This document shows, piece after piece, positions 15,796 to 40,000 of a stretch of DNA of 49,526 bases (position 1 is the stretch's first letter; each line of letters starts with the position of its first letter). Source of the stretch: Escherichia phage Henu7; sequence record NC_054894.1; one strand, 5' to 3'. A program made the translations under genes and the position numbers. The notes under the pieces are model-generated. The model searched no databases. It saw only the letters and a list, made by a program, of their open reading frames with translations, and was not told where the DNA came from.

Positions 15796-15871
15796 GTTCC
15801 AGAATGAGTGGCGGGGCGCACGTTTACCATCACCGCCGTAGTGGTCATTGGCAACTGCAATCATCCAGGCG

Positions 15872-16153
15872 TTAGCGAATATCAGCAGCCGCATAAATCA
15901 CTCCTTTAATCTTCTTGATCTCGTCAACTAGCTCTTGCTCGTCGTGAATCATGGCTGGCGAGCACTCCCAACAAGCGGAGGGAAGTTTCTTGTTCTTGCC
16001 CTTGATCAGAAATCCGCCCATCAACTCCCAATTGCAGATAAGGCGATCATCACGCATATCGTACAGGTTGAACAAGTTGCGGCGCTCGCCGCTAACATAA
16101 ATCTTCATGCCATTGTTGCGGCAGAATACGCGTAATTCTTTTGTCACTCGCAT
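15872..16153 (-). CDS. hypothetical protein
   Basis: GGAGAG RBS; ATG overlaps upstream stop. Confidence 0.45.
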   Translation of the reverse strand: MRVTKELRVFCRNNGMKIYVSGERRNLFNLYDMRDDRLICNWELMGGFLIKGKNKKLPSACWECSPAMIHDEQELVDEIKKIKGVIYAAADIR

Positions 16154-16347
16154 TATTCACTCTCCAGTACGGTTACAGGATCCAGACGCTCCAGCACAAC
16201 TTTGAAGTCGGCAAAGAATGTCGGCCTACGTTCGGTTAACTCTGTATAGGTGTCAGTCGCCAGCGTTGCGCATTCACCTTCATAGCACACCACACGCTTT
16301 CCGTTCTCGCGACTGATTGCCACCACGCGATAGGTATTCTTGACCAT
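16153..16347 (-). CDS. hypothetical protein
   Basis: GGAGG RBS; ATG overlaps upstream stop. Confidence 0.45.
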   Translation of the reverse strand: MVKNTYRVVAISRENGKRVVCYEGECATLATDTYTELTERRPTFFADFKVVLERLDPVTVLESE

Positions 16348-16547
16348 TAAATAACCTCCATCACAGTATGCTCGTCACCAGCAAGTGACCAGAGAGTGTT
16401 AGTAAGTTGCTTCACTTTCCAGGTTAGGCCGGAGTGATAGCAGACCATTTCCTCAAGGTCTATTGTGATCTCAACGCCTTTCTTGAAGATCCCACGCGTC
16501 AGCTCTGGATTGCGGCGAATAACTTTAACGTCGATCTGGTCTTGCAT
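16347..16547 (-). CDS. hypothetical protein
   Basis: Start ATG 16547 with RBS CTGAGGAA and leader AACGAAAC; the longer track ORF starts at a TTG inside the palindrome. Confidence 0.45.
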   Translation of the reverse strand: MQDQIDVKVIRRNPELTRGIFKKGVEITIDLEEMVCYHSGLTWKVKQLTNTLWSLAGDEHTVMEVI

Positions 16548-16604
16548 TTTTGATTCCTCAGTTTCGTTTTGTTGAGGCAATGATAGCGCATCGCCTCTGA
16601 TTGG

Positions 16605-16625
16605 TTTTAGCAAATCGTGCTATTC
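16605..16625 (-). promoter_or_regulatory. palindromic element
   Basis: Minus strand reads GAATAGCACGATTTGCTAAAA then TATCAT hexamer and CAACAAAACGAAAC leader. Confidence 0.45.
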
Positions 16626-16887
16626 AGTTCTTAACCTGGCTCATGCGATCCATTTCACGATACCAGATAACCAAATCTTCCAGCGCCAGGAACAAGTCAG
16701 CTTTCTTTGTCTCCCTGATGGTGTCACATACCAGGTTGATATCACATTCCAGCACGCCCAGGTACTCGCCATACTGACGGCAACCTTCAATGTTGTCTGC
16801 CTTGCTGGTGCGGCGATTGTTACGCTGCGCACGGCAAATCAGGCTGATGATGTTGCTGGTTTCTTTGCTGGTGATGTGATAGGTCAT
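16624..16887 (-). CDS. hypothetical protein (first gene of leftward early operon)
   Basis: Leader CGAAACGAACTGAGGAAAACGAAA-ATG, the same pattern as rightward early genes. Confidence 0.5.
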   Translation of the reverse strand: MTYHITSKETSNIISLICRAQRNNRRTSKADNIEGCRQYGEYLGVLECDINLVCDTIRETKKADLFLALEDLVIWYREMDRMSQVKN

Positions 16888-16944
16888 TTTCGTTTTCCTC
16901 AGTTCGTTTCGATGAATGCATTATGCCAAATCCAGATCACGGAG

Positions 16945-16965
16945 TTTTAGCAAAAAGTGCTATTC
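16945..16965 (-). promoter_or_regulatory. palindromic element plus CATAAT upstream of leftward early operon
   Basis: Minus strand reads GAATAGCACTTTTTGCTAAAA, then CATAAT, then leader. Confidence 0.45.
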
Positions 16966-17253
16966 AATCGGTAGTTAGATGATTTGGTGATTTTCTGACC
17001 TGCATTTTGATGGTTAGTTTGATGTGCGTCAGCTTTTGACGAGATTTGATGATTGTTGATTAGATTTGATTGAATTTGATTGTGGGAATCATCATGGTCT
17101 GACGATGCCGTTTTTGCGCTCTCGAAAACTCCGTTCTGTTATCTTCTGTTTACACTCGTTTCCTCTTGTTACCGAAAGTACGGTGGCGTAGTTTGTTCGC
17201 GTTTTTCGCGTGGCAGAAACAAAAAAAACTTTTAATCTCCCTATAAACAACTA

Positions 17254-17296
17254 ATAAAATCAATAGTTTATTTTATATATATTATATTTGTTTTCA
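17254..17296. repeat. AT-rich conserved element, copy 1 (second copy at 47770..47815)
   Basis: 17-bp identical core ATAAAATCAATAGTTTA followed by a TTTATAT(A/G)TAT-type tract. Confidence 0.7.
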
Positions 17297-17549
17297 CTAC
17301 GTTATACTTGTTCCATATGGTATGGGGTGGTTATGGGATTTTATTATTGGTGGTATTGGTTAATTTATAGGCATGTTCCGCTCAGGATGTGTGCGATTCA
17401 TCATTTCGTTGTGGTTGCTTTGGGTGACATATACATATCTATTATGGCCTCCGAAAAAACTGTAACACCGGTAACATGGAAAAAACACGTTTTGTGGTTA
17501 AGCAAATCAGCAACTTACGACAAATTTTGTTTTTCGGCTCAAAAAAAAC

Positions 17550-17578
17550 TTGTGGAAACCGATTGTAACATGCATAAT
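17550..17578 (+). promoter_or_regulatory. candidate sigma70-type promoter for rightward early operon
   Basis: TTGTGG, 17-nt spacer, CATAAT, preceded by an A8 tract; followed by CGAAACGAACAAATGGAGG leader and ATG 17611. Confidence 0.4.
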
Positions 17579-17610
17579 GCACCCCGAAACGAACAAATGG
17601 AGGTAAAACG

Positions 17611-26211: not shown

Positions 26212-26215
26212 CCTA

Positions 26216-31629: not shown

Positions 31630-32109
31630 ATGGCAATTCCAGCAACTTATCAAGCTACAATGGCACGCGCACTGCCTGGCCAGGTATCCGACACCTCAGC
31701 TTATAACATCGACGGCGCTTGCGTTCTTGACGGCAGCGCGAATGTGTTCGTTGGCGTAGCGGTTCAGAATGGCGGCGTTGATTCTATGGGTAACAAGCTG
31801 ATCAAGCCTATGGCATCCGGCGGCGCAGCTTACGGCGTGGCGATTCGCTCCCACTTCCAGACAACTTCCGCTGATGGTCGAATGGTTTACGTGCCTGGCG
31901 GCGGGATCAACGTAATGAACGAGGGTCGCGTTTGGATGCTGGCTGTAGATGGTCAGACTCAACAGCCATATGGCACTGCGATCAAGGTTGACGAATCTAC
32001 TGGTAAAGTAGATACCACTTCCGGCACTGTAGAGCCGAACTGGATCGCAACTGGCGACTTCACTGAGTTTGACGGCCTCAAGCTGATCGAGGTACAGGTT
32101 AAACCGTAA
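31630..32109 (+). CDS. capsid-associated structural protein, paralog A
   Basis: Shares motifs GRVWM and ATGDF with the next ORF; RBS AAGGAGA. Confidence 0.4.
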   Translation: MAIPATYQATMARALPGQVSDTSAYNIDGACVLDGSANVFVGVAVQNGGVDSMGNKLIKPMASGGAAYGVAIRSHFQTTSADGRMVYVPGGGINVMNEGRVWMLAVDGQTQQPYGTAIKVDESTGKVDTTSGTVEPNWIATGDFTEFDGLKLIEVQVKP

Positions 32110-32113
32110 TAAA

Positions 32114-32141
32114 CAGGGCGCTCATTGAGCGCCTTTTTTTA
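32114..32141 (+). terminator. intrinsic terminator
   Basis: Hairpin GGCGCTCATTGAGCGCC followed by TTTTTTT. Confidence 0.7.
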
Positions 32142-32153
32142 TGGAGGTGTTAA

Positions 32154-32615
32154 ATGATTGATTACGGAGTCATTTCTGGATGCGCAAATCCTGGGTATCT
32201 CGTTGATTCTACGATAAGCGTTATAAACGGCGGCGGCGTTGTATATGGCGATGCTGTTTTCCCTGGGTTTGCCGTGTCTCACTACGGGATTATTGATAGC
32301 TGTCACACATACGGTCAATTTGATGGTGATCGAGCCGCTTGCGGTATTGTGATCGCAGGTAATGAAATTTGCGTTGAGGATGGAATACCTAACGGGGAAG
32401 CTTTGAGCGTTTTAGTTAAGGGCAGAGTTTGGGCTGTAATGCTTTCAGATGAAGGAGCGCCGAGAGAGGGCGATAGCGTCATGATCTCAGATGGTGGCGT
32501 GATAACTTCACTCGCTGAGCGGTTCATTCAAGCCCCTAGAGGCTGGGTATTTACCGGAGACTACGAGAAATTTTCTCATGATCTATCACTAGTTGGCGTG
32601 TGGATTACCCAATAA
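32154..32615 (+). CDS. capsid-associated structural protein, paralog B
   Basis: Motifs GRVWA and FTGDYE parallel the preceding ORF. Confidence 0.4.
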   Translation: MIDYGVISGCANPGYLVDSTISVINGGGVVYGDAVFPGFAVSHYGIIDSCHTYGQFDGDRAACGIVIAGNEICVEDGIPNGEALSVLVKGRVWAVMLSDEGAPREGDSVMISDGGVITSLAERFIQAPRGWVFTGDYEKFSHDLSLVGVWITQ

Positions 32616-32634
32616 CATAAAAACATATTGCACG

Positions 32635-32654
32635 TTTAGCAAAAAGTGCTATCA
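32635..32654 (-). promoter_or_regulatory. palindromic element (inverted orientation) plus hairpin upstream of major capsid gene
   Basis: Plus strand reads TTTAGCAAAAAGTGCTATCA, then hairpin GGCTGTTAATCGCTAACAGCC, RBS AAGGAGA. Confidence 0.4.
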
Positions 32655-32696
32655 TTGAGGCTGTTAATCGCTAACAGCCTTTAAGGAGAAAGAAAC

Positions 32697-33659
32697 ATGA
32701 CTAAAAAGTATGACGAATTTGACGCTAGCGTAGTTACCGCTCACCTGCAAATGCAGGGCGTTAAGGCTGACGCTTCCGACATGGGTATCTGGACTGCGCA
32801 GGAGCTTCACAAGATCCGCTCCTCTGCATACGAAAAAGAATACCCTGTAGGCTCCGCACTGCGTGTGTTCCCTGTCACCAACGAACTGAGCGACACGGAT
32901 AAGACTTTCGAATACCAGACTTTCGATAAAGTTGGCTACGCGAAAATCATCGCAGACTACACCGACGACCTGCCAACCGTTGACGCGCTTATGTCTACTG
33001 AGTTTGGTAAGGTGTTCCGCCTGGGTAACGCGTTCCTGATCTCCATTGACGAAATCAAAGCGGGTCAACGTACTGGTAAGAGCCTGAGCGCTCGCAAGGC
33101 AAACGCCGCGCAGAATGCTCACGATCAGCTTGTTAACTTCCTGGTGTTCAAGGGTTCCAATCCGCACAAAATTCTGAGCGTGTTTGATCACCCTAACCTC
33201 ACCAAGATTGTTGCGGCTAAACAGTGGTACGACTCAAGCACCAAGACGAAAGAGCCAGAGCAAGCTTTCGACGATCTGACTGCGGCAATCGAAGCGCTGG
33301 AAACTCAGACCAATGGGCAGCACCGCGCAACCCACATTCTGATCCCTCCAAGCGTGCGCAAAGTCCTGACGGTTCGCATGGAAAACACTACTGAGAGCTA
33401 CCTGGAATACTTCCAGAAGCAAAACGGCGGTATCACCATTGAAGCAATCGCAGAGCTTGAAGATATCGACGGCTCAGGCGGCAAGGGCGTACTGGTGTAC
33501 GAAAAAGATCCAATGAATATGTCCATTGAGATCCCTGAGGCATTCAATATGCTACCAGCGCAGCCTAAAGACCTGCATTTCAAAGTGCCTTGCACCTCTA
33601 AATGCACTGGCCTGACAATCTATCGCCCGTTAACTCTTGTGTTAATCACTGGCGTGTAA
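32697..33659 (+). CDS. major capsid protein
   Basis: 320 aa, strong RBS, dedicated upstream unit and strong downstream terminator; position in head module. Confidence 0.55.
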   Translation: MTKKYDEFDASVVTAHLQMQGVKADASDMGIWTAQELHKIRSSAYEKEYPVGSALRVFPVTNELSDTDKTFEYQTFDKVGYAKIIADYTDDLPTVDALMSTEFGKVFRLGNAFLISIDEIKAGQRTGKSLSARKANAAQNAHDQLVNFLVFKGSNPHKILSVFDHPNLTKIVAAKQWYDSSTKTKEPEQAFDDLTAAIEALETQTNGQHRATHILIPPSVRKVLTVRMENTTESYLEYFQKQNGGITIEAIAELEDIDGSGGKGVLVYEKDPMNMSIEIPEAFNMLPAQPKDLHFKVPCTSKCTGLTIYRPLTLVLITGV

Positions 33660-33664
33660 TATCA

Positions 33665-33700
33665 TGGGAGCCTCTTTGGAGGTTCCCTTTTTTTTTATTC
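33665..33700 (+). terminator. intrinsic terminator
   Basis: Hairpin GGGAGCCTCTTTGGAGGTTCCC followed by T10. Confidence 0.7.
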
Positions 33701-33713
33701 AGGAGATAAAGTA

Positions 33714-33986
33714 ATGGCTAAAGAAAAAAATGTAACACTTGTAAACTCTGGCGTTTGCTCAATTTTCATCAAAGGTGATCGCTATGTTCCAGGTGATGAA
33801 ATTGAAGTCCTTGAGTCGGATCTGGAAACTTCCGGCATTGAAATGTTGATCGCTCGCGGCGATCTGAAAGTTAAGAACGACGAAGAAAAGACCGAAGAAG
33901 TAAGGGAGCGCGTTACCAAGCGCAAGAAAGCAAGCCCAACCGAGGGCAAGACGAAAAACGAGCTTGAGGACGGCGGCGAGTTTTAA
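33714..33986 (+). CDS. hypothetical Lys/Glu-rich protein flanked by two terminators
   Basis: RBS AGGAGA; terminators on both sides. Confidence 0.5.
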   Translation: MAKEKNVTLVNSGVCSIFIKGDRYVPGDEIEVLESDLETSGIEMLIARGDLKVKNDEEKTEEVRERVTKRKKASPTEGKTKNELEDGGEF

Positions 33987-33991
33987 TAACA

Positions 33992-34018
33992 AGGGAGCCT
34001 ATGCTCCCTTTTCTTTTA
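33992..34018 (+). terminator. intrinsic terminator
   Basis: Hairpin GGGAGCCTATGCTCCC followed by TTTTCTTTT. Confidence 0.65.
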
Positions 34019-34028
34019 GGGGGAAATC

Positions 34029-34427
34029 ATGAATCAAGATGTTATTGACCAGATCGTAAAAATTGCGCCTCCTTTCGCTGGTGTTGATCCAGCTTTACTA
34101 CAGGCGTGGGTTGAGCTAGCAGAGGAGTTTGTTTGTAAGAAGCGTTTCAAGGACTCATACACCAAAGCGGTTGCGCTCTACACTTTGCACCTCATGACTC
34201 TTGACGGAGCCATGAAGCAAGAAGGGGAAAGCGTAGAATCATACTCTCAGCGCGTCGCGTCATTCTCCCTGACTGGTGAGTTTTCGCAGACGTTTGATCG
34301 CGTCTCCTCAGATTCCTCAGGCAAGGAGATCCGACAAACTCCGTGGGGGAAAATGTATGAGGCTTTAAACCGCAAGAGAGGCGGAGGGTTTGGGCTTGTA
34401 ACTGGATTGCGCCGGAGGTCTTGCTGA
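34029..34427 (+). CDS. head-tail connector / head completion protein
   Basis: Synteny after capsid genes; size 132 aa. Confidence 0.4.
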
Positions 34428-34798
34428 TGAATTACGCTAACATTGCACGAATGGCTAAATCTGGAATCGCGTTTTTCAGTGATCGTAATGGGGTGTTTAA
34501 GCTTATCACTAGCGGAGGCGGCGTTGAGATTGTCGGCGGAGTTGAGGTTGAAAAGCCGGAGCAATCCACAACAATTAAGGGGCTTATTCGAGCGCCAAAA
34601 GTCCGAGAGGTTGACGGAGAAACAATCCGTGTGACGGACAAGCTGGGAGTGTTTGACGCAGACATTGAGATCAAGAACGGAAACCAGATCGAGGTTGACG
34701 GCGAGCGGTATGTTGTCGTTGAGGCAAGACCAATCAGACCGACAGGGCTAACGGTTGCTTATCGCCCGATACTGCGGAGGGTTGCGGTTCATGGCTAA
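34421..34798 (+). CDS. head-tail adaptor-like protein
   Basis: Synteny; overlaps neighbouring genes. Confidence 0.35.
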
Positions 34799-35231
34799 CT
34801 ATTCGATCCGAGAGTTTCAGGGTAATATTGACAAGTGGATAAGCGCGGTTGAGAGCGGACTAACTGATTGCATTGATATTTTCGGCGGTAAAGTTCAGGA
34901 AGCGCTCGTTAATGGATCGCCAGTTGATACTGGAAGATTCCGAGGAAACTGGCAGGTAACAGCAAACGAGCCTCCGCTATACGCGCTCAACCAGTACGAC
35001 AAGGACGGAAGCAAAACAATCGCATACGGAGAGCGAGCCATTCGCGCCATAATGCGCGGCGGCGGTGCGGTTCGCGCTATCTACTTTTCAAATATGCTTA
35101 TCTACGCCAACGCGCTAGAATACGGACACTCAAAACAGGCTCCCGCTGGCGTTGTTGGTATCGTTGCAATTCGCTTACGCTCATTCATGGCGGAGGCTAT
35201 TAGAGAGTCGAGGGCTAAAAATGGATTATGA
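34791..35231 (+). CDS. neck / tail component protein
   Basis: ATG 34791 with GGAGGG RBS; synteny. Confidence 0.35.
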   Translation: MANYSIREFQGNIDKWISAVESGLTDCIDIFGGKVQEALVNGSPVDTGRFRGNWQVTANEPPLYALNQYDKDGSKTIAYGERAIRAIMRGGGAVRAIYFSNMLIYANALEYGHSKQAPAGVVGIVAIRLRSFMAEAIRESRAKNGL

Positions 35232-35622
35232 TCTCATGCTGGCGGCACGCAAGGCATTCGCCGCCGAATACGAAAACAGATACGCAATCGCCTATGAAAA
35301 CGTTGAGTTTACGCCTCCTGGCGATGGCTCTATGTGGTTGGCGTTTCACTACGTTGAATCTGAGCCGTTGAGGTTGTCGCTTGATCGCAAATGCGTTTCT
35401 TATATGGGGATGGTTCAGATCAATGTCACGTTTGCGCCTGGCACTGGAACAGAGAAGCCGCGCAAGCTGGCAAAAGAGATTGCTGATTTTTTCAAAGATG
35501 GTAAAATGCTTGACGTGGGCTACATCTACGAGGGCGCTAGCGTCCGGTCAGTCCAGAAATCAGAAACGGGCTGGATTGTTCCGATCCGGTTTGTTGTAAG
35601 AGTTGACACAAAAGGAGAATAA
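35221..35622 (+). CDS. tail completion / terminator protein
   Basis: ATG 35221 with GAGGG RBS; synteny. Confidence 0.35.
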   Translation: MDYDLMLAARKAFAAEYENRYAIAYENVEFTPPGDGSMWLAFHYVESEPLRLSLDRKCVSYMGMVQINVTFAPGTGTEKPRKLAKEIADFFKDGKMLDVGYIYEGASVRSVQKSETGWIVPIRFVVRVDTKGE

Positions 35623-35623
35623 C

Positions 35624-36283
35624 ATGCATCTTCCAAACGGTTCACAGATTTTTATCGAAGCGTCTCGCGGCTCAGAGCTTTCCGCTAGCGCAATCAGCAA
35701 CGCAGAAAAGCCAGTTTTCACAATGGCTGATACTGGCGATCTCGAAAAGGGTAATTACGTCATTGTAACTGAGTCCTCGTGGGGTAAACTGCTTGATCGC
35801 GTACTGCGCGTTAGCGAGGTTTCCAGCAACTCAAGCGCAACGCTTGAAGGTATCGACACCACTGATACCAACGTGTTCCCTGCCGGAGCAACAGCGAAGA
35901 TCGCAAAGATTAACGCGTGGTCTGAAATCCCTTGCGTTCAGGATCTTGCGCAGGACGGCGGCGAGCAGCAGTATTATACTTATCAGTGCTTGTCCGACGA
36001 TCAAGAGCAGCAGCTACCTACCTATAAGAGCGCTGTTTCCCTGACGTACACCTTTGCGCACGAGTACGACAACTTGATCTATCCTCTGCTGCGTAAAGCA
36101 GATGAAAGCGGCGAAGTCACAGCAATGCGTATGTACGTACCGAAAGCGAAGGAAATGCGTTGCTGGGCTGGCGTGCTGTCATTCAACGAGATCCCGCAAA
36201 CTGCGGTTAACGAAATGGAAACTGTTTCCCTTTCTTGCTCGCTGAAAGGCCGATACACATTCCTTCCTGTATCACAGGATTAA
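35624..36283 (+). CDS. major tail protein
   Basis: RBS AAGGAG before ATG 35624; followed by strong terminator and then chaperone and tape-measure genes. Confidence 0.5.
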   Translation: MHLPNGSQIFIEASRGSELSASAISNAEKPVFTMADTGDLEKGNYVIVTESSWGKLLDRVLRVSEVSSNSSATLEGIDTTDTNVFPAGATAKIAKINAWSEIPCVQDLAQDGGEQQYYTYQCLSDDQEQQLPTYKSAVSLTYTFAHEYDNLIYPLLRKADESGEVTAMRMYVPKAKEMRCWAGVLSFNEIPQTAVNEMETVSLSCSLKGRYTFLPVSQD

Positions 36284-36287
36284 TCAC

Positions 36288-36312
36288 AAGGGGCGTTGCG
36301 CCCCTTTTTTAT
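36288..36312 (+). terminator. intrinsic terminator
   Basis: Hairpin GGGGCGTTGCGCCCC followed by TTTTTT. Confidence 0.75.
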
Positions 36313-36358
36313 TTGATGTAATATTACCCCAACATTTAACCACTAAGGAGAAACACCA

Positions 36359-36673
36359 ATGGCTAAAATGAAATTGACTCTTGCCCCGCTTCCAGACTTC
36401 AAACTTCCAGTTAAATTTGTGTTGCCGGATGGTAACGAGCAAAAAATTGTGTTTACAGTTAAGCATAAAAAGGCAAGCGAGATTCAAGCACTTTACCAGA
36501 AAGAAGGCATTAAAGATCCAGAATTCATCATGAATGTTGCGTCAGGTTGGGATCTGGAAGAAGAATTCAACGAAGAAAACGCGCAACTGTTAGTTGATTA
36601 TTACCCTAGCGCGGCGCTGGCACTAATGGGATCTTATTTAAGCGCTCTGGCAGGGCAGCGAGTAAAAAACTAA
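36359..36673 (+). CDS. tail assembly chaperone (G-like)
   Basis: Position between major tail and tape-measure genes; ends just after slippery heptamer A_AAA_AAC. Confidence 0.65.
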   Translation: MAKMKLTLAPLPDFKLPVKFVLPDGNEQKIVFTVKHKKASEIQALYQKEGIKDPEFIMNVASGWDLEEEFNEENAQLLVDYYPSAALALMGSYLSALAGQRVKN

Positions 36674-36987
36674 AACGGGCGGTTTATCTGTACTACCAGA
36701 AGCCGCCCACAGATGCAGAGCTTGAGGCCGTAGGTTTAACCCGCGCAGACTATGAAGGCGAGGAGCCGCCGGAAGTTATATTTGATGAATCAATGATGCA
36801 GTCATGGGATGTATTCTGCGCAATGCAGACTCAATGGCGATCTGCTGGTGGCGGCGCTTATGGCCTTGATTACAATGTTTTGCCTATGTTGTTCAAAATC
36901 TATAAAATAGACGATGAAGAAATGGCATTGAACGACTTGCGGATCATGGAAAGTAAAGCGCTCGAAATGATGCACGCAGGAAAATAA
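36359..36987 (+). CDS. tail assembly chaperone GT-like fusion via programmed -1 frameshift
   Basis: Slippery heptamer A AAA AAC at 36664..36670; the -1 frame is open from 36610 to the stop at 36987; this matches the conserved G/GT arrangement upstream of the tape measure. Confidence 0.6.
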
Positions 36988-36988
36988 A

Positions 36989-37015
36989 CGAGCGCCTTTT
37001 GGCGCTCTTTTCTTA
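36989..37015 (+). terminator. intrinsic terminator
   Basis: Hairpin AGCGCCTTTTGGCGCT followed by a T-rich run. Confidence 0.6.
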
Positions 37016-37029
37016 TCTGGAGGTACTTA

Positions 37030-40000
37030 ATGGCGGAACAATACGCAGGCTTGACGTTAGGCGTTGACGTTCAGCAGGTAAACAACGCAGTTAAATCCCT
37101 GAGGGATTTTAAGACCGCTTCCGAGGGTGCGGCTGATGGTCTTGAGTCTTTCGTCAATGAGGAGCAGATTGCCAGACAGAGAGCCAAAGATTTGGCCTCA
37201 GAGCTTGCAAAGCAGAGAAAGGAATTTCAGAGCGTACAGGCCGCAATAGATCCGACTGCGGCAAAAATGGAGCGACTAAAGGTTGCTGCGGCTGACCTTG
37301 ATAAGCTTTGGAAAAATGGAGTGGTTCCAGACGAGACATTTTTCCAGCTTGGAGAAATGATTGAGGCTCAGACAAACAAGCTTGCAGCAAACAGAAAAGC
37401 GTTAACGGCTGAGGGCATGGCGGCAATCGAGGAGTCAAAGCAGAAAGCTAAAGCGGCGGCTGAGGCTCAGAAATTCATTGCGGCTCTTGAGGCGCAAGCT
37501 GCTGCTGCTGGCAAGACGCAATCCGAACTGATGGAAATGAAAGCGGCTCAACTTGGTGTTACAGCGCAAGCGGCTCCATTCATTGAGAGAATGCGCCAGC
37601 AAGAGCAAGCGACACAGAAACTTGGAATCTCAATGGGTCAGTATAACCAAGCTATGCGAATGCTTCCGGCTCAGATCACTGACGTTGTAACGTCGCTTGC
37701 TTCCGGTATGCCTGTTTGGATGGTTGCAATTCAGCAGGGCGGTCAGATTAAGGACTCTTTCGGCAGCATAGGGAATGCATTTCAGGGGCTGAAAGATTTA
37801 ATCCTTGGTGCGGGCGTAGATATTAATGAATCTCTGGATGAAACCAGCGAAAACGCCAACGATCTTGCTGAGGGTTTTAATAATATAGCCGATGCTGGCG
37901 GTAGGGTTGGCGGTCTCGCTAGGTTCATTAACCCAGTAACCATCGGTGCGGTTGCCCTTGTTGGTGCTATCGCAGCAATTGCAAAAGCTGGTTTCGATGC
38001 GTGGAAGTCACAAAGGGATCTGGCTAATGCTTTGGTAATTACTGGTGGATATGCTGCCACTACCACAGGGCAGATTGACGATCTGGCGAATGAATTGAGC
38101 GAGACTTCAAGCGCAACTTCCGGAAGAATCAAGGATATCGCGTCAACTTTGGCATCCTCTGGGAAATACACTGTTAGCCAGATTAAGACCATTACCAAGA
38201 CTACTGCGGAATGGGAAGCGCAAACAGGAGAGAGCAGCGATAAAATCAAAGGGTACTTTGACATGATTTTAAAAGATCCTGTCAAGGGTCTTGTCGAACT
38301 TAACGATAAATTCAACTTCCTGAATGAAGGGCAGCTAACCTATATTGATACACTGAGCAAAACCAAGGGCGAGGTAGCAGCAGCAGATGAAGCGACAAAA
38401 CTATTTGCTGAAACGATGGATAAGCGACTGAAAGATGTGGCTGACAGCGCAACACCTCTTGAAGATATGTGGATGGATATCAAGAAGTGGGCGTCAGATG
38501 CATGGGATTGGGTTGGGGATCACACGATGGCGGCGCTTAACCTGATCATTGACGTTGTAGCCGGAACGGTTGAGCAGGTTCGTTATTTGCTTAATCAGGG
38601 TGATATTCTCATTGGTGAATTTATTATATCTGCAACAAATGCTATGCAAAAAATACCTGGTCTTGATGGTGTTGGTGACTCAGTAATTGCAAAGCAACAG
38701 AATATTATAAATAACGCTAAGGAGAACAACAAGGAGCTATTAAAATCAATTGCCGAACGTAACGAGCGAGTCAAAAAAGGCGAGCAGGGTTACATTGACA
38801 TGATGAAAAATCGTGCAGCGGTTGAACAGCAATATGCGACAAAAACAAAAGAGAATATCAGGAAGGAAGCCGAGGAATTAGCTAAGCGCAACAAAAAGCA
38901 AAAGGCTGAAAAAGCTAAGGTATCGGCTGGCGATAAGCTGGAAGAACAATATCAGCGTGATATCCTTGCGCTAGAAACTCAATTAAGAGTTTTGAAAGAG
39001 CACAAGACGATCACAGATACAATAAGCCAGCAACGTAAATCTTTATGGGCTGAACAAGCTAAAATTCAGATTTTGCAAGAAGCCTCAACAAAACGGCAAC
39101 TTACTGATGAAGAAAAAAGCATTTTAGCAAACAAAGATAAGATCCTGGCGATGGCTGAACAAAAAGCTATTTTGGGCGATCAGATTGTTGCGCAAACGCG
39201 CCTTAATCAGTTGCAAGATAGCTCAATCAAGTTTATCCAGCAGCAGAAAGCAGCAACGGAAGCACTAGCCAAAACCAGAGGGTTAAGTGAACGTGAAGCA
39301 GCAAGAGCGGAGGAACGTGCAAAGGTTGAGGCTGATTATCTTGCCAAAGGAGGCAAGGAAGGAGATCCGCAACTCACCGCAATGATGGATGAATTAGACA
39401 ATCGCTATAAAGAGGAAGATGCTAAACGTGCTGATTGGTTGGCTGGCGCTAAAAATGCCTTTGCGGAGTACGGCGAGGAAGCAATGAACATGTATGATAA
39501 TATCGGCAACATTGCGAGCCAGGCGCTAAACGGCCTATCGCAACAAATGTCTGATTTTTTGACTACTGGACAAGCCAGCTTCAAAGACTTTGCAAAATCG
39601 ATCATTAGCATGATTGTTCAGATGATCACAAAGATGGTTATCTTCAATAGCATTTCCGGCATGATGGGCGGCTCAACCTGGACAATGGGATCGCTAATGA
39701 GCGGCTTCTCGTCTGGTGGGTACACTGGCGACGGCGGAAAGTATGATCCGGCTGGCATTGTTCACAAAGGCGAGTTTGTTTTCACTAAGGAAGCAACGCA
39801 GCGAATCGGCGCTCGTAACCTTTACCGCCTGATGCGTGGATATGCAAACGGCGGCAGCGTTGGCGGCTCAGGTTACAGCAGGGCTTCAACTGGCGGCGCT
39901 GGACTTGCTTACTCGTTCGGTGATATCAACGTTGATATCAACAACGGGAGCGATCCAAAAGGTCTTGAAACTGGTGTTAGAATGCTTGTTGCTGATATGC

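Follow-up and report, generated by a model that had tools for sequence, protein, structure and literature searches.

Drexlerviridae such as coliphage T1 are virulent phages. In T1, 13 virion proteins (gp33, gp34, gp36, gp37, gp38, gp41, gp42, gp44, gp45, gp47, gp48, gp49, and gp52) have been modeled by electron cryomicroscopy (cryo-EM), and the capsid is accounted for by 415 copies of gp47 together with gp49 homotrimers and gp48/gp49 heterotrimers (PMC11945409). A recent TLS paper (PMC11447400) refers to an earlier description in which the T1 late region consists of transcriptional modules bounded by rho-independent terminators. One product of that region, gp46, receives zero mentions in the near-atomic virion paper (PMC11945409), and its gene belongs to the small number of core genes in the T1-family head module that lack an assigned role despite the near-atomic virion structures. 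Here we describe its counterpart in Escherichia phage Henu7, a 90 amino acid open reading frame (ORF) at positions 33714..33986 (+ strand, ATG start) of sequence record NC_054894.1; the whole stretch of 49,526 nucleotides is referred to as the window. Judged by sequence, the ORF is the ortholog of T1 gp46, a late gene in the core set of every T1-like phage. With a probability of about 0.55, we take its product to be a non-virion accessory protein of head assembly or DNA packaging, the dose of which would be set by two leaky terminators.

A first-pass annotation of the window had noted a Lys/Glu-rich 90 amino acid ORF directly after the major capsid gene and enclosed by two strong intrinsic terminators, and had suggested a moron or a decoration protein expressed at a distinct level. 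The ORF is present at exactly those coordinates and encodes 15 Glu and 11 Lys residues, chiefly in its C-terminal third, and the gene preceding it does encode the major capsid protein (MCP; PF09950, E=1e-53). The ORF product is acidic overall, with an isoelectric point (pI) of 4.9, and its C-terminal third has a pI of 5.4. A Shine-Dalgarno sequence, AGGAG (33701..33705, + strand), lies 8 nt 5' of the ATG. The GC content of the ORF is 45.8%, against a window mean of 48.2% and about 50% for the neighboring genes, i.e., some 4-5 points below the latter.

The product matches Pfam family PF24231 (DUF7444) with 129.4 bits (cut-off 27, E=5e-38), residues 1-90 aligning with profile positions 1-90, and it is also assigned to PHROG 2716; 34/34 aligned relatives match PF24231. 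It had no match in PADLOC or NCBIfam. The T1 gene, ST46 (YP_003899.1; NC_005833, 16150-16437), is recovered by tblastn with 35% identity across 100% of the query. Comparison of the two proteins gives 35-39% identity, the T1 protein carrying a 5-residue insertion in its beta domain; both genes have the same neighbors (in T1, the MCP gene ST47 and the adaptor gene ST45) and the same two annotated terminators. The tblastn search with the window ORF returned 399 phage records, T1 included, whereas the Webervirus form returned 462 records, 346 of them from Klebsiella phages, and the Rtp-type form 279. The protein in the same slot of the Webervirus phage IMGroot is likewise a DUF7444 member (E=5.5e-16).

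Synteny was assessed in 14 annotated genomes, drawn from Tempevirinae, Tunavirinae, Braunvirinae, Rogunavirinae, and Webervirus, and in three distant metagenomic contigs. The gene lies between those for the MCP and the adaptor in all 14 genomes and all three contigs, and the contigs have the order protease, cement, MCP, DUF7444, adaptor. Presence or absence in related phages had been proposed as a check, and the gene was found in every locus examined rather than sporadically. In Shigella phage Sd1 (MF158042; L015, 879-1469), an HNH/AP2 homing-endonuclease gene has been inserted after the post-MCP terminator and ahead of the DUF7444 gene; at no other inspected locus was the adjacency of MCP gene and ORF interrupted. 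An exhaustive hidden Markov model search of 1.84 billion representative proteins yielded only 37 clusters, all of 44-114 amino acids, and a word-indexed search found DUF7444 proteins only, on contigs of at most about 52 kb, except for one 78-kb phage record. The limit of ~52 kb is the size of a T1-type genome, and the family is therefore small, restricted to T1-type phages, and represented there as a core gene. Relatives share 28-56% identity with the window in the ORF protein, 56-83% in the MCP, and 42-82% in the adaptor; on these figures, the ORF protein evolves faster than both of its neighbors.

The two hairpins that enclose the gene are also there, and the coordinates given for them in the first-pass annotation (33665..33700 and 33992..34018) are correct to 1-2 nt. 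Both have, on the transcribed strand of an intergenic spacer, a GC-rich stem-loop with a U-tract immediately behind it, as expected of intrinsic terminators. Terminator 1 (33666..33696, + strand) starts 6 nt after the MCP stop codon; its stem-loop, GGGAGCCTC-TTTG-GAGGTTCCC at 33666-33687, has 9 bp with six GC pairs and is followed by T9 at 33688-33696, and the RNA has a minimum free energy (MFE) of -18.1 kcal/mol (z = -2.7 versus shuffles). Terminator 2 (33991..34019, + strand) starts 4 nt after the ORF stop codon; its stem-loop, AAGGGAGC-CTAT-GCTCCCTT at 33991-34010, has 8 bp with five GC pairs, ends 18 nt 5' of the adaptor ATG, and is followed by the tail TTCTTTTAG, with an MFE of -13.8 kcal/mol (z = -1.7 versus shuffles). 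Terminator 2 is the weaker of the two hairpins, and because its U-tract (TTCTTTT) is interrupted, it is probably also the leakier.

Both spacers were extracted from 18 Drexlerviridae-type genomes. A GC-rich hairpin with a T-tract follows the MCP gene in 18/18; between the ORF and the adaptor gene, a hairpin is present in 18/18 and a hairpin with a T-tract in 17/18, the exception having a poor T-tract, whereas shuffled spacers would be expected to give a hairpin with a T-tract in ~0.03 genomes. The 18 genomes contain 16 distinct 5'-arm sequences upstream and 12 downstream (examples are GGGAGCCTC, GGGGCTAAC, GGGACTCA, GCCCTC, and GGCCC) with complementarity kept throughout, and the hairpins are thus selected as structures.

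In the T1 RefSeq record (NC_005833), ST46 has an annotated rho-independent terminator on either side, at 16107-16137 and 16445-16470, and others are marked after ST49, ST41, and ST39; the record of phage Motto annotates both flanking terminators, and that of SU57 only the upstream one. The gene family and both terminators are accordingly already publicly annotated, through the T1 record, Pfam DUF7444, and PHROG 2716. As a genome feature, the locus therefore adds little, the protein moreover being identical to that of Klebsiella phage Samwise. For each terminator that the T1 record places in this stretch of the late region (after ST49, ST47, ST46, ST41, and ST39), the window has a counterpart in the same relative position (5/5; 32115, 33666, 33991, 36288, and 36990). 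The counterpart after the first cement gene (32115..32143, + strand) is a terminator-like hairpin of 9 bp with six GC pairs and a T-run (MFE -15.4 kcal/mol, z=-3.1). Insulation is thus not peculiar to the 90 amino acid ORF: throughout the family, such punctuation occurs behind the high-copy genes (those for cement, MCP, and major tail protein) as well as behind the ORF. Two further terminator-like hairpins lie upstream in the window, at 26215 and 28412. An Rfam scan of 32000-37100 gave only sub-threshold chance matches, and a literature search on the transcriptomics of T1-like phages found nothing relevant.

No promoter-like site was called on the + strand in the 26-nt spacer between the hairpin and the ATG in the window, and the nearest such site (33526-33553) is within the MCP gene. 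A spacer of 26 nt leaves no room for a promoter, and expression of the ORF would therefore have to come from read-through of terminator 1. In some other lineages, the spacer before the gene is 65-71 nt long. A metagenomic relative (L019, 3934-3963) has an 11/12 match to a sigma-70 promoter, TTGACA-18-TATATT, between the upstream terminator and the gene; a perfect TATAAT is conserved before the gene in the Braunvirinae spacer (L013/L014/L016, about 1460-1480); and the SU57 record has a BPROM-annotated promoter before the DUF7444 gene. A simple scan called no promoter before the gene in IME253 or IMGroot. Unlike in the window, the gene may thus form a true terminator-promoter-gene-terminator unit in relatives with a promoter-like spacer. 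Of the earlier suggestion of a moron or decoration protein with its own expression level, the expression part survives, as the hairpins are conserved by compensatory change and a promoter lies between the first of them and the gene in at least one relative and perhaps in others; the two identities attached to it do not.

Evidence on presence in virions comes from the literature on orthologs rather than from Henu7 itself. Virion proteomics had been named as a check, and in published LC-MS/MS (liquid chromatography coupled to tandem mass spectrometry) of phages SH6 and vB_EcoS-95 the ortholog is not among the virion proteins. In CsCl-purified SH6, ORF34 (MCP, 15838-16797) and ORF36 (adaptor, 17179-17589) were detected, but ORF35 (the DUF7444 ortholog, 16847-17131) was not; in vB_EcoS-95, the proteins detected run from _0064 to _0069 (through the MCP) and continue with _0073, the ortholog _0070 being absent. 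The window protein would give tryptic peptides of 15 and 25 amino acids and so is not inherently invisible to mass spectrometry. The LC-MS/MS table of Sfin-1 also lacks the ortholog but was given no weight, because it apparently lacks the MCP too and lists enzymes; for AHP24-type phages, only seven gel bands were analyzed, which has no bearing on the ORF protein. A profile of the family (34 members) had no match among PDB chains at E<=10, whereas virion proteins of close relatives, both MCP and adaptor, are deposited there. Taken together, the absences from the PDB, from the T1 model, and from the mass spectrometry lists argue against a decoration protein or an abundant virion component. Conservation in all relatives as a known structural component had been put forward as the outcome that would overturn the first-pass view; all relatives do have the gene, but its product is not among the known structural components.

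An AlphaFold2 model built from the 34-sequence alignment reached a predicted local distance difference test (pLDDT) score of 89.5 and replaced an earlier, poor run on a shallow alignment (pLDDT 66). Residues 6-48 of the model hold four strands and two helices, all short; these are followed by a strand (51-53), a helix (57-70), and a short helix at the C terminus (81-86). The protein is laid out as a small beta/alpha domain (~5-56), the helix 57-70, a basic patch KRKK, and an acidic C-terminal peptide NELEDGGEF. In the family alignment, the conserved core reads NxGxC...G....PGxEFEV...L...G...L...G.LE.KDD and is followed by the helix; the conserved tail, K.DP..GK(S/T)..ELEDGGE(F/Y)(K), is found outside Webervirus and is modified in Braunvirinae and Rogunavirinae.

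Strong matches in a BFVD fold search were to orthologs only. Weaker ones (E 1e-3 to 7e-2) were to small uncharacterized phage proteins, among them a 51 amino acid protein of phage DIBBI, and several DUF7210 domain-containing proteins matched with E 0.014-0.07. The window protein itself scores 20.5 bits against DUF7210 (E=3e-4, residues 20-38), below the gathering cut-off of 27, and such sub-threshold matches occur in 14/34 family members (the window protein and 13/33 relatives). A search for remote relatives with a core-domain profile recovered DUF7444 and Dibbivirus proteins only. Dibbivirus comprises myophages (Xanthomonas phage DIBBI and Pantoea phage AAM37) that have two tandem small genes in the same slot (AAM37 L024, 2803-3188; L025, 3501-3895), between a PF09950 MCP 49% identical to that of the window and a DUF4054 adaptor. 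Dibbivirus gp11, of 51 amino acids, aligns over all 51 residues with the family (hhalign probability 94%, E=1.3e-7), whereas gp10 aligns only weakly with the family profile and has an Ala/Glu/Lys tail. Neither Dibbivirus gp10 and gp11 nor the DUF7210 proteins have the helix and ELEDGGEF tail of DUF7444. The DUF7444 core, which stands alone as Dibbivirus gp11, may be related to the DUF7210 proteins of many unrelated phages.

The mechanism we envisage begins with the flanking hairpins acting as conserved leaky rho-independent terminators, or else as 3'-end stabilizers. From its 9 bp stem and U9 tract, we infer that terminator 1 is strong and passes only part of the MCP transcripts, and the ORF, which would lack its own promoter in the window, would be read by these read-through transcripts. 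Terminator 2, being weaker, would then lower the dose again for the connector genes, the products of which are needed in six or 12 copies. Transcript levels would in this way step down from the MCP (415 copies per head) to the ORF and then to the connector genes (12 or six copies each), and expression of the ORF would be intermediate, made late, and probably still high in the cell. The ORF has its own downstream attenuator, as do the cement, MCP, and tail-tube genes, and a need for many copies of its product is therefore probable. Abundance combined with absence from the virion, and a gene position between the MCP and the head-completion genes, fit an accessory factor of assembly or packaging; such a factor would act on procapsids without becoming a stable virion component, and its conserved C-terminal peptide may dock onto a conserved partner. 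Conservation of that peptide in a fast-evolving protein, and the related 51 amino acid core-only protein in the same slot of Dibbivirus myophages, both speak for an assembly factor. Several points weigh against it. The literature search on DUF7444 and DUF7210 found nothing, and so no experimental datum on the protein in any phage; AAM37 gp10, the weak relative in the same slot, is annotated as a "structural protein" in GenBank; cryo-EM models and shotgun mass spectrometry can miss a virion or internal protein that is low in copy number, disordered, symmetry-mismatched, or proteolysed; and the hairpins might act mainly to stabilize mRNA 3' ends.

The gpFI protein of phage lambda has two parts, is abundant late in infection, and is not a virion component. 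It is encoded in the same slot, between E and FII (NP_040588, "DNA packaging chaperone FI"), a hairpin follows the capsid gene E there too, and gpFI is small and acidic like the ORF protein. The analogy is positional only: homology to lambda FI was rejected, as hhalign gave gpFI a probability of 0.6% against the DUF7444 family, and no gpFI appeared among the PDB fold matches. Furthermore, the domain order is reversed, the globular domain of FI being C-terminal, and lambda packages from cos whereas T1-like phages use pac/headful packaging. An FI-like packaging role, as a specific form of the accessory function proposed above, is by this analogy possible but rather doubtful. We think it unlikely that the ~50 amino acid DUF7444 beta/alpha core marks a widespread class of post-capsid, non-virion factors that bind procapsids or terminase as packaging or head-maturation chaperones, and that DUF7444 itself is the counterpart of gpFI in pac-type phages, using the near-invariant ELEDGGE(F/Y) peptide and having its dose set by dedicated terminators. 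Were a packaging or assembly chaperone confirmed, this would close a gap in the assembly pathway of T1 and might account for small post-capsid genes of a similar kind in other phages. The hairpin after lambda gene E (ATGGCCCTTCGGGGCCAT; L026, 1459-1482) is identical in sequence to the stem-loop of the post-MCP terminator in Webervirus IMGroot (L005, 3445-3468); the two may have converged on a tetraloop hairpin of the form GGCCC-TTCG-GGGCC or descend from a common ancestor.

The accessory-factor reading has to be set against four others. The protein might instead be a low-copy, transient, or disordered component of the virion or procapsid, for example, an internal or ejection protein, an accessory at the portal vertex, or a procapsid core protein that the ELEDGGEF peptide targets and that the prohead protease removes or degrades during maturation. 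A location in the head module with a strong Shine-Dalgarno sequence would suit such a component, the conserved C-terminal peptide could be its capsid-targeting signal, and it would share its slot with the "structural" gp10 of AAM37; symmetry-imposed cryo-EM and shotgun mass spectrometry can, of course, miss small low-copy proteins. However, gp46 is neither modeled nor mentioned in the T1 virion structure (PMC11945409), no PDB chain matches the family, and the two LC-MS/MS studies miss the ortholog despite its suitable tryptic peptides, even though the 12-copy adaptor was seen in SH6. We consider this unlikely. Decoration or cement, with an expression level of its own, was suggested by a small, charged protein encoded directly after the MCP, but it is hardly credible and was rejected. 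Cement is already provided by the pair of paralogs encoded upstream (PF22758/PF23982), which are homologous to T1 gp49 and gp48, and gp47 with the gp48/gp49 trimers fully explains the T1 capsid (PMC11945409); the PDB profile search and the virion LC-MS/MS of SH6 and vB_EcoS-95 agree with the T1 cryo-EM content in giving the ORF protein no such place. The fold matches of the model likewise include no beta-tulip, Ig-like, OB, knotted trimer, or other decoration fold.

The moron proposal, i.e., an accessory gene for host takeover, anti-defense, or superinfection exclusion that forms an autonomous terminator-bounded unit in the head operon, is very improbable. A single small gene bounded by terminators in a late structural operon does resemble the morons of lambdoid and HK97-like phages, and the promoter-like elements before the gene in the metagenomic relative, Braunvirinae, and SU57, the rapid evolution of the protein, and the GC content 4-5 points below that of the neighboring genes would all be in keeping. 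Yet morons are sporadic, whereas this gene occupies one fixed position in every Drexlerviridae subfamily sampled (hundreds of records) and in distant metagenomic relatives; the window lineage has no promoter in its 26-nt spacer, the composition is not clearly atypical (45.8% GC being near the window's 48.2%), and in a myophage with the same head module, the slot after the MCP gene likewise holds a related core domain. The usual rationale for morons, that they are expressed from a prophage, is inapplicable to a virulent family, and neither PADLOC nor NCBIfam offered a match; the moron identity was rejected because the gene is universally conserved and lacks a promoter in the window. Lastly, the protein could be a small nucleic-acid-binding protein, with an L9-N/WYL-like beta/alpha domain plus KRKK, that acts on phage DNA or late mRNA, for instance, as a cofactor in packaging initiation or by regulating the translation of head genes. 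Apart from the basic KRKK patch, this idea draws on Bacillus subtilis YqbF, which recurs among the weak matches and which we take to be encoded after a prophage capsid gene and to have a DNA-binding HeH tail. The protein is acidic, even in its C-terminal third, and no known nucleic-acid-binding family motif was found in its sequence; we judge the idea improbable.

Over the 1.9 kb that surrounds the ORF, identity is 98.6% to Escherichia phage JohannLBurckhardt (Bas11) and 98.2% to Klebsiella phage Samwise, both of which belong to Drexlerviridae, Tempevirinae, Henuseptimavirus, and by this similarity the window phage is a T1-like siphophage of the Henuseptimavirus type. Its gene order is protease-scaffold (DUF2213), two cement paralogs, MCP, the ORF, the DUF4054 adaptor, and further neck and tail genes, the cement, MCP, and adaptor genes being on the + strand. 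The first cement (decoration) gene (31630..32109) encodes a homolog of T1 gp49 (PF22758 Phage_cement, E=1e-26), which is a trimeric cement protein on the T1 capsid (PMC11945409). The second cement paralog (32154..32615; PF23982, E=9e-19; PF22758, E=1e-7) resembles the N-terminal domain of T1 gp48. The C-terminal domain of T1 gp48 protrudes, and an aid to adsorption has been proposed for it (PMC11945409); as the window paralog has only 153 amino acids versus 255 for T1 gp48, this protrusion is missing in the window lineage. The MCP gene (32697..33659) belongs to PHROG 264, in addition to PF09950, and its product matches the T1-type MCP of PDB entries 9kzj/9kmg with E=1e-154. Downstream of the ORF, the gene at 34029..34427 encodes a head-to-tail adaptor of the DUF4054/E217 gp27 family, homologous to T1 gp45 (PF13262, E=6e-24), that matches the PDB adaptor protein chains 9l01_B/9jlf_b with E=4e-42.

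Public annotations of the DUF7444 gene are all "hypothetical," except for one evidently spurious automated name: in JLBYU10 (L006, 1995-2727), it is called a "proteasomal ATPase OB C-terminal domain protein," in a record that has implausible automated names for T1-type head genes and in which the adaptor start has been extended so that it overlaps both the ORF and its terminator. The record of Enterobacter phage N5822 (MW032452) has 78 kb, which is unusual for a T1-like phage, and carries a truncated, 47 amino acid copy of the ORF; it may be chimeric or mis-assembled. In addition, about 20 GenBank records of "Campylobacter phage" (host C. jejuni; e.g., MG065669 and MG065675) are T1-like Drexlerviridae, some up to 86% identical to the window, and they look like mislabeled hosts or contaminants.

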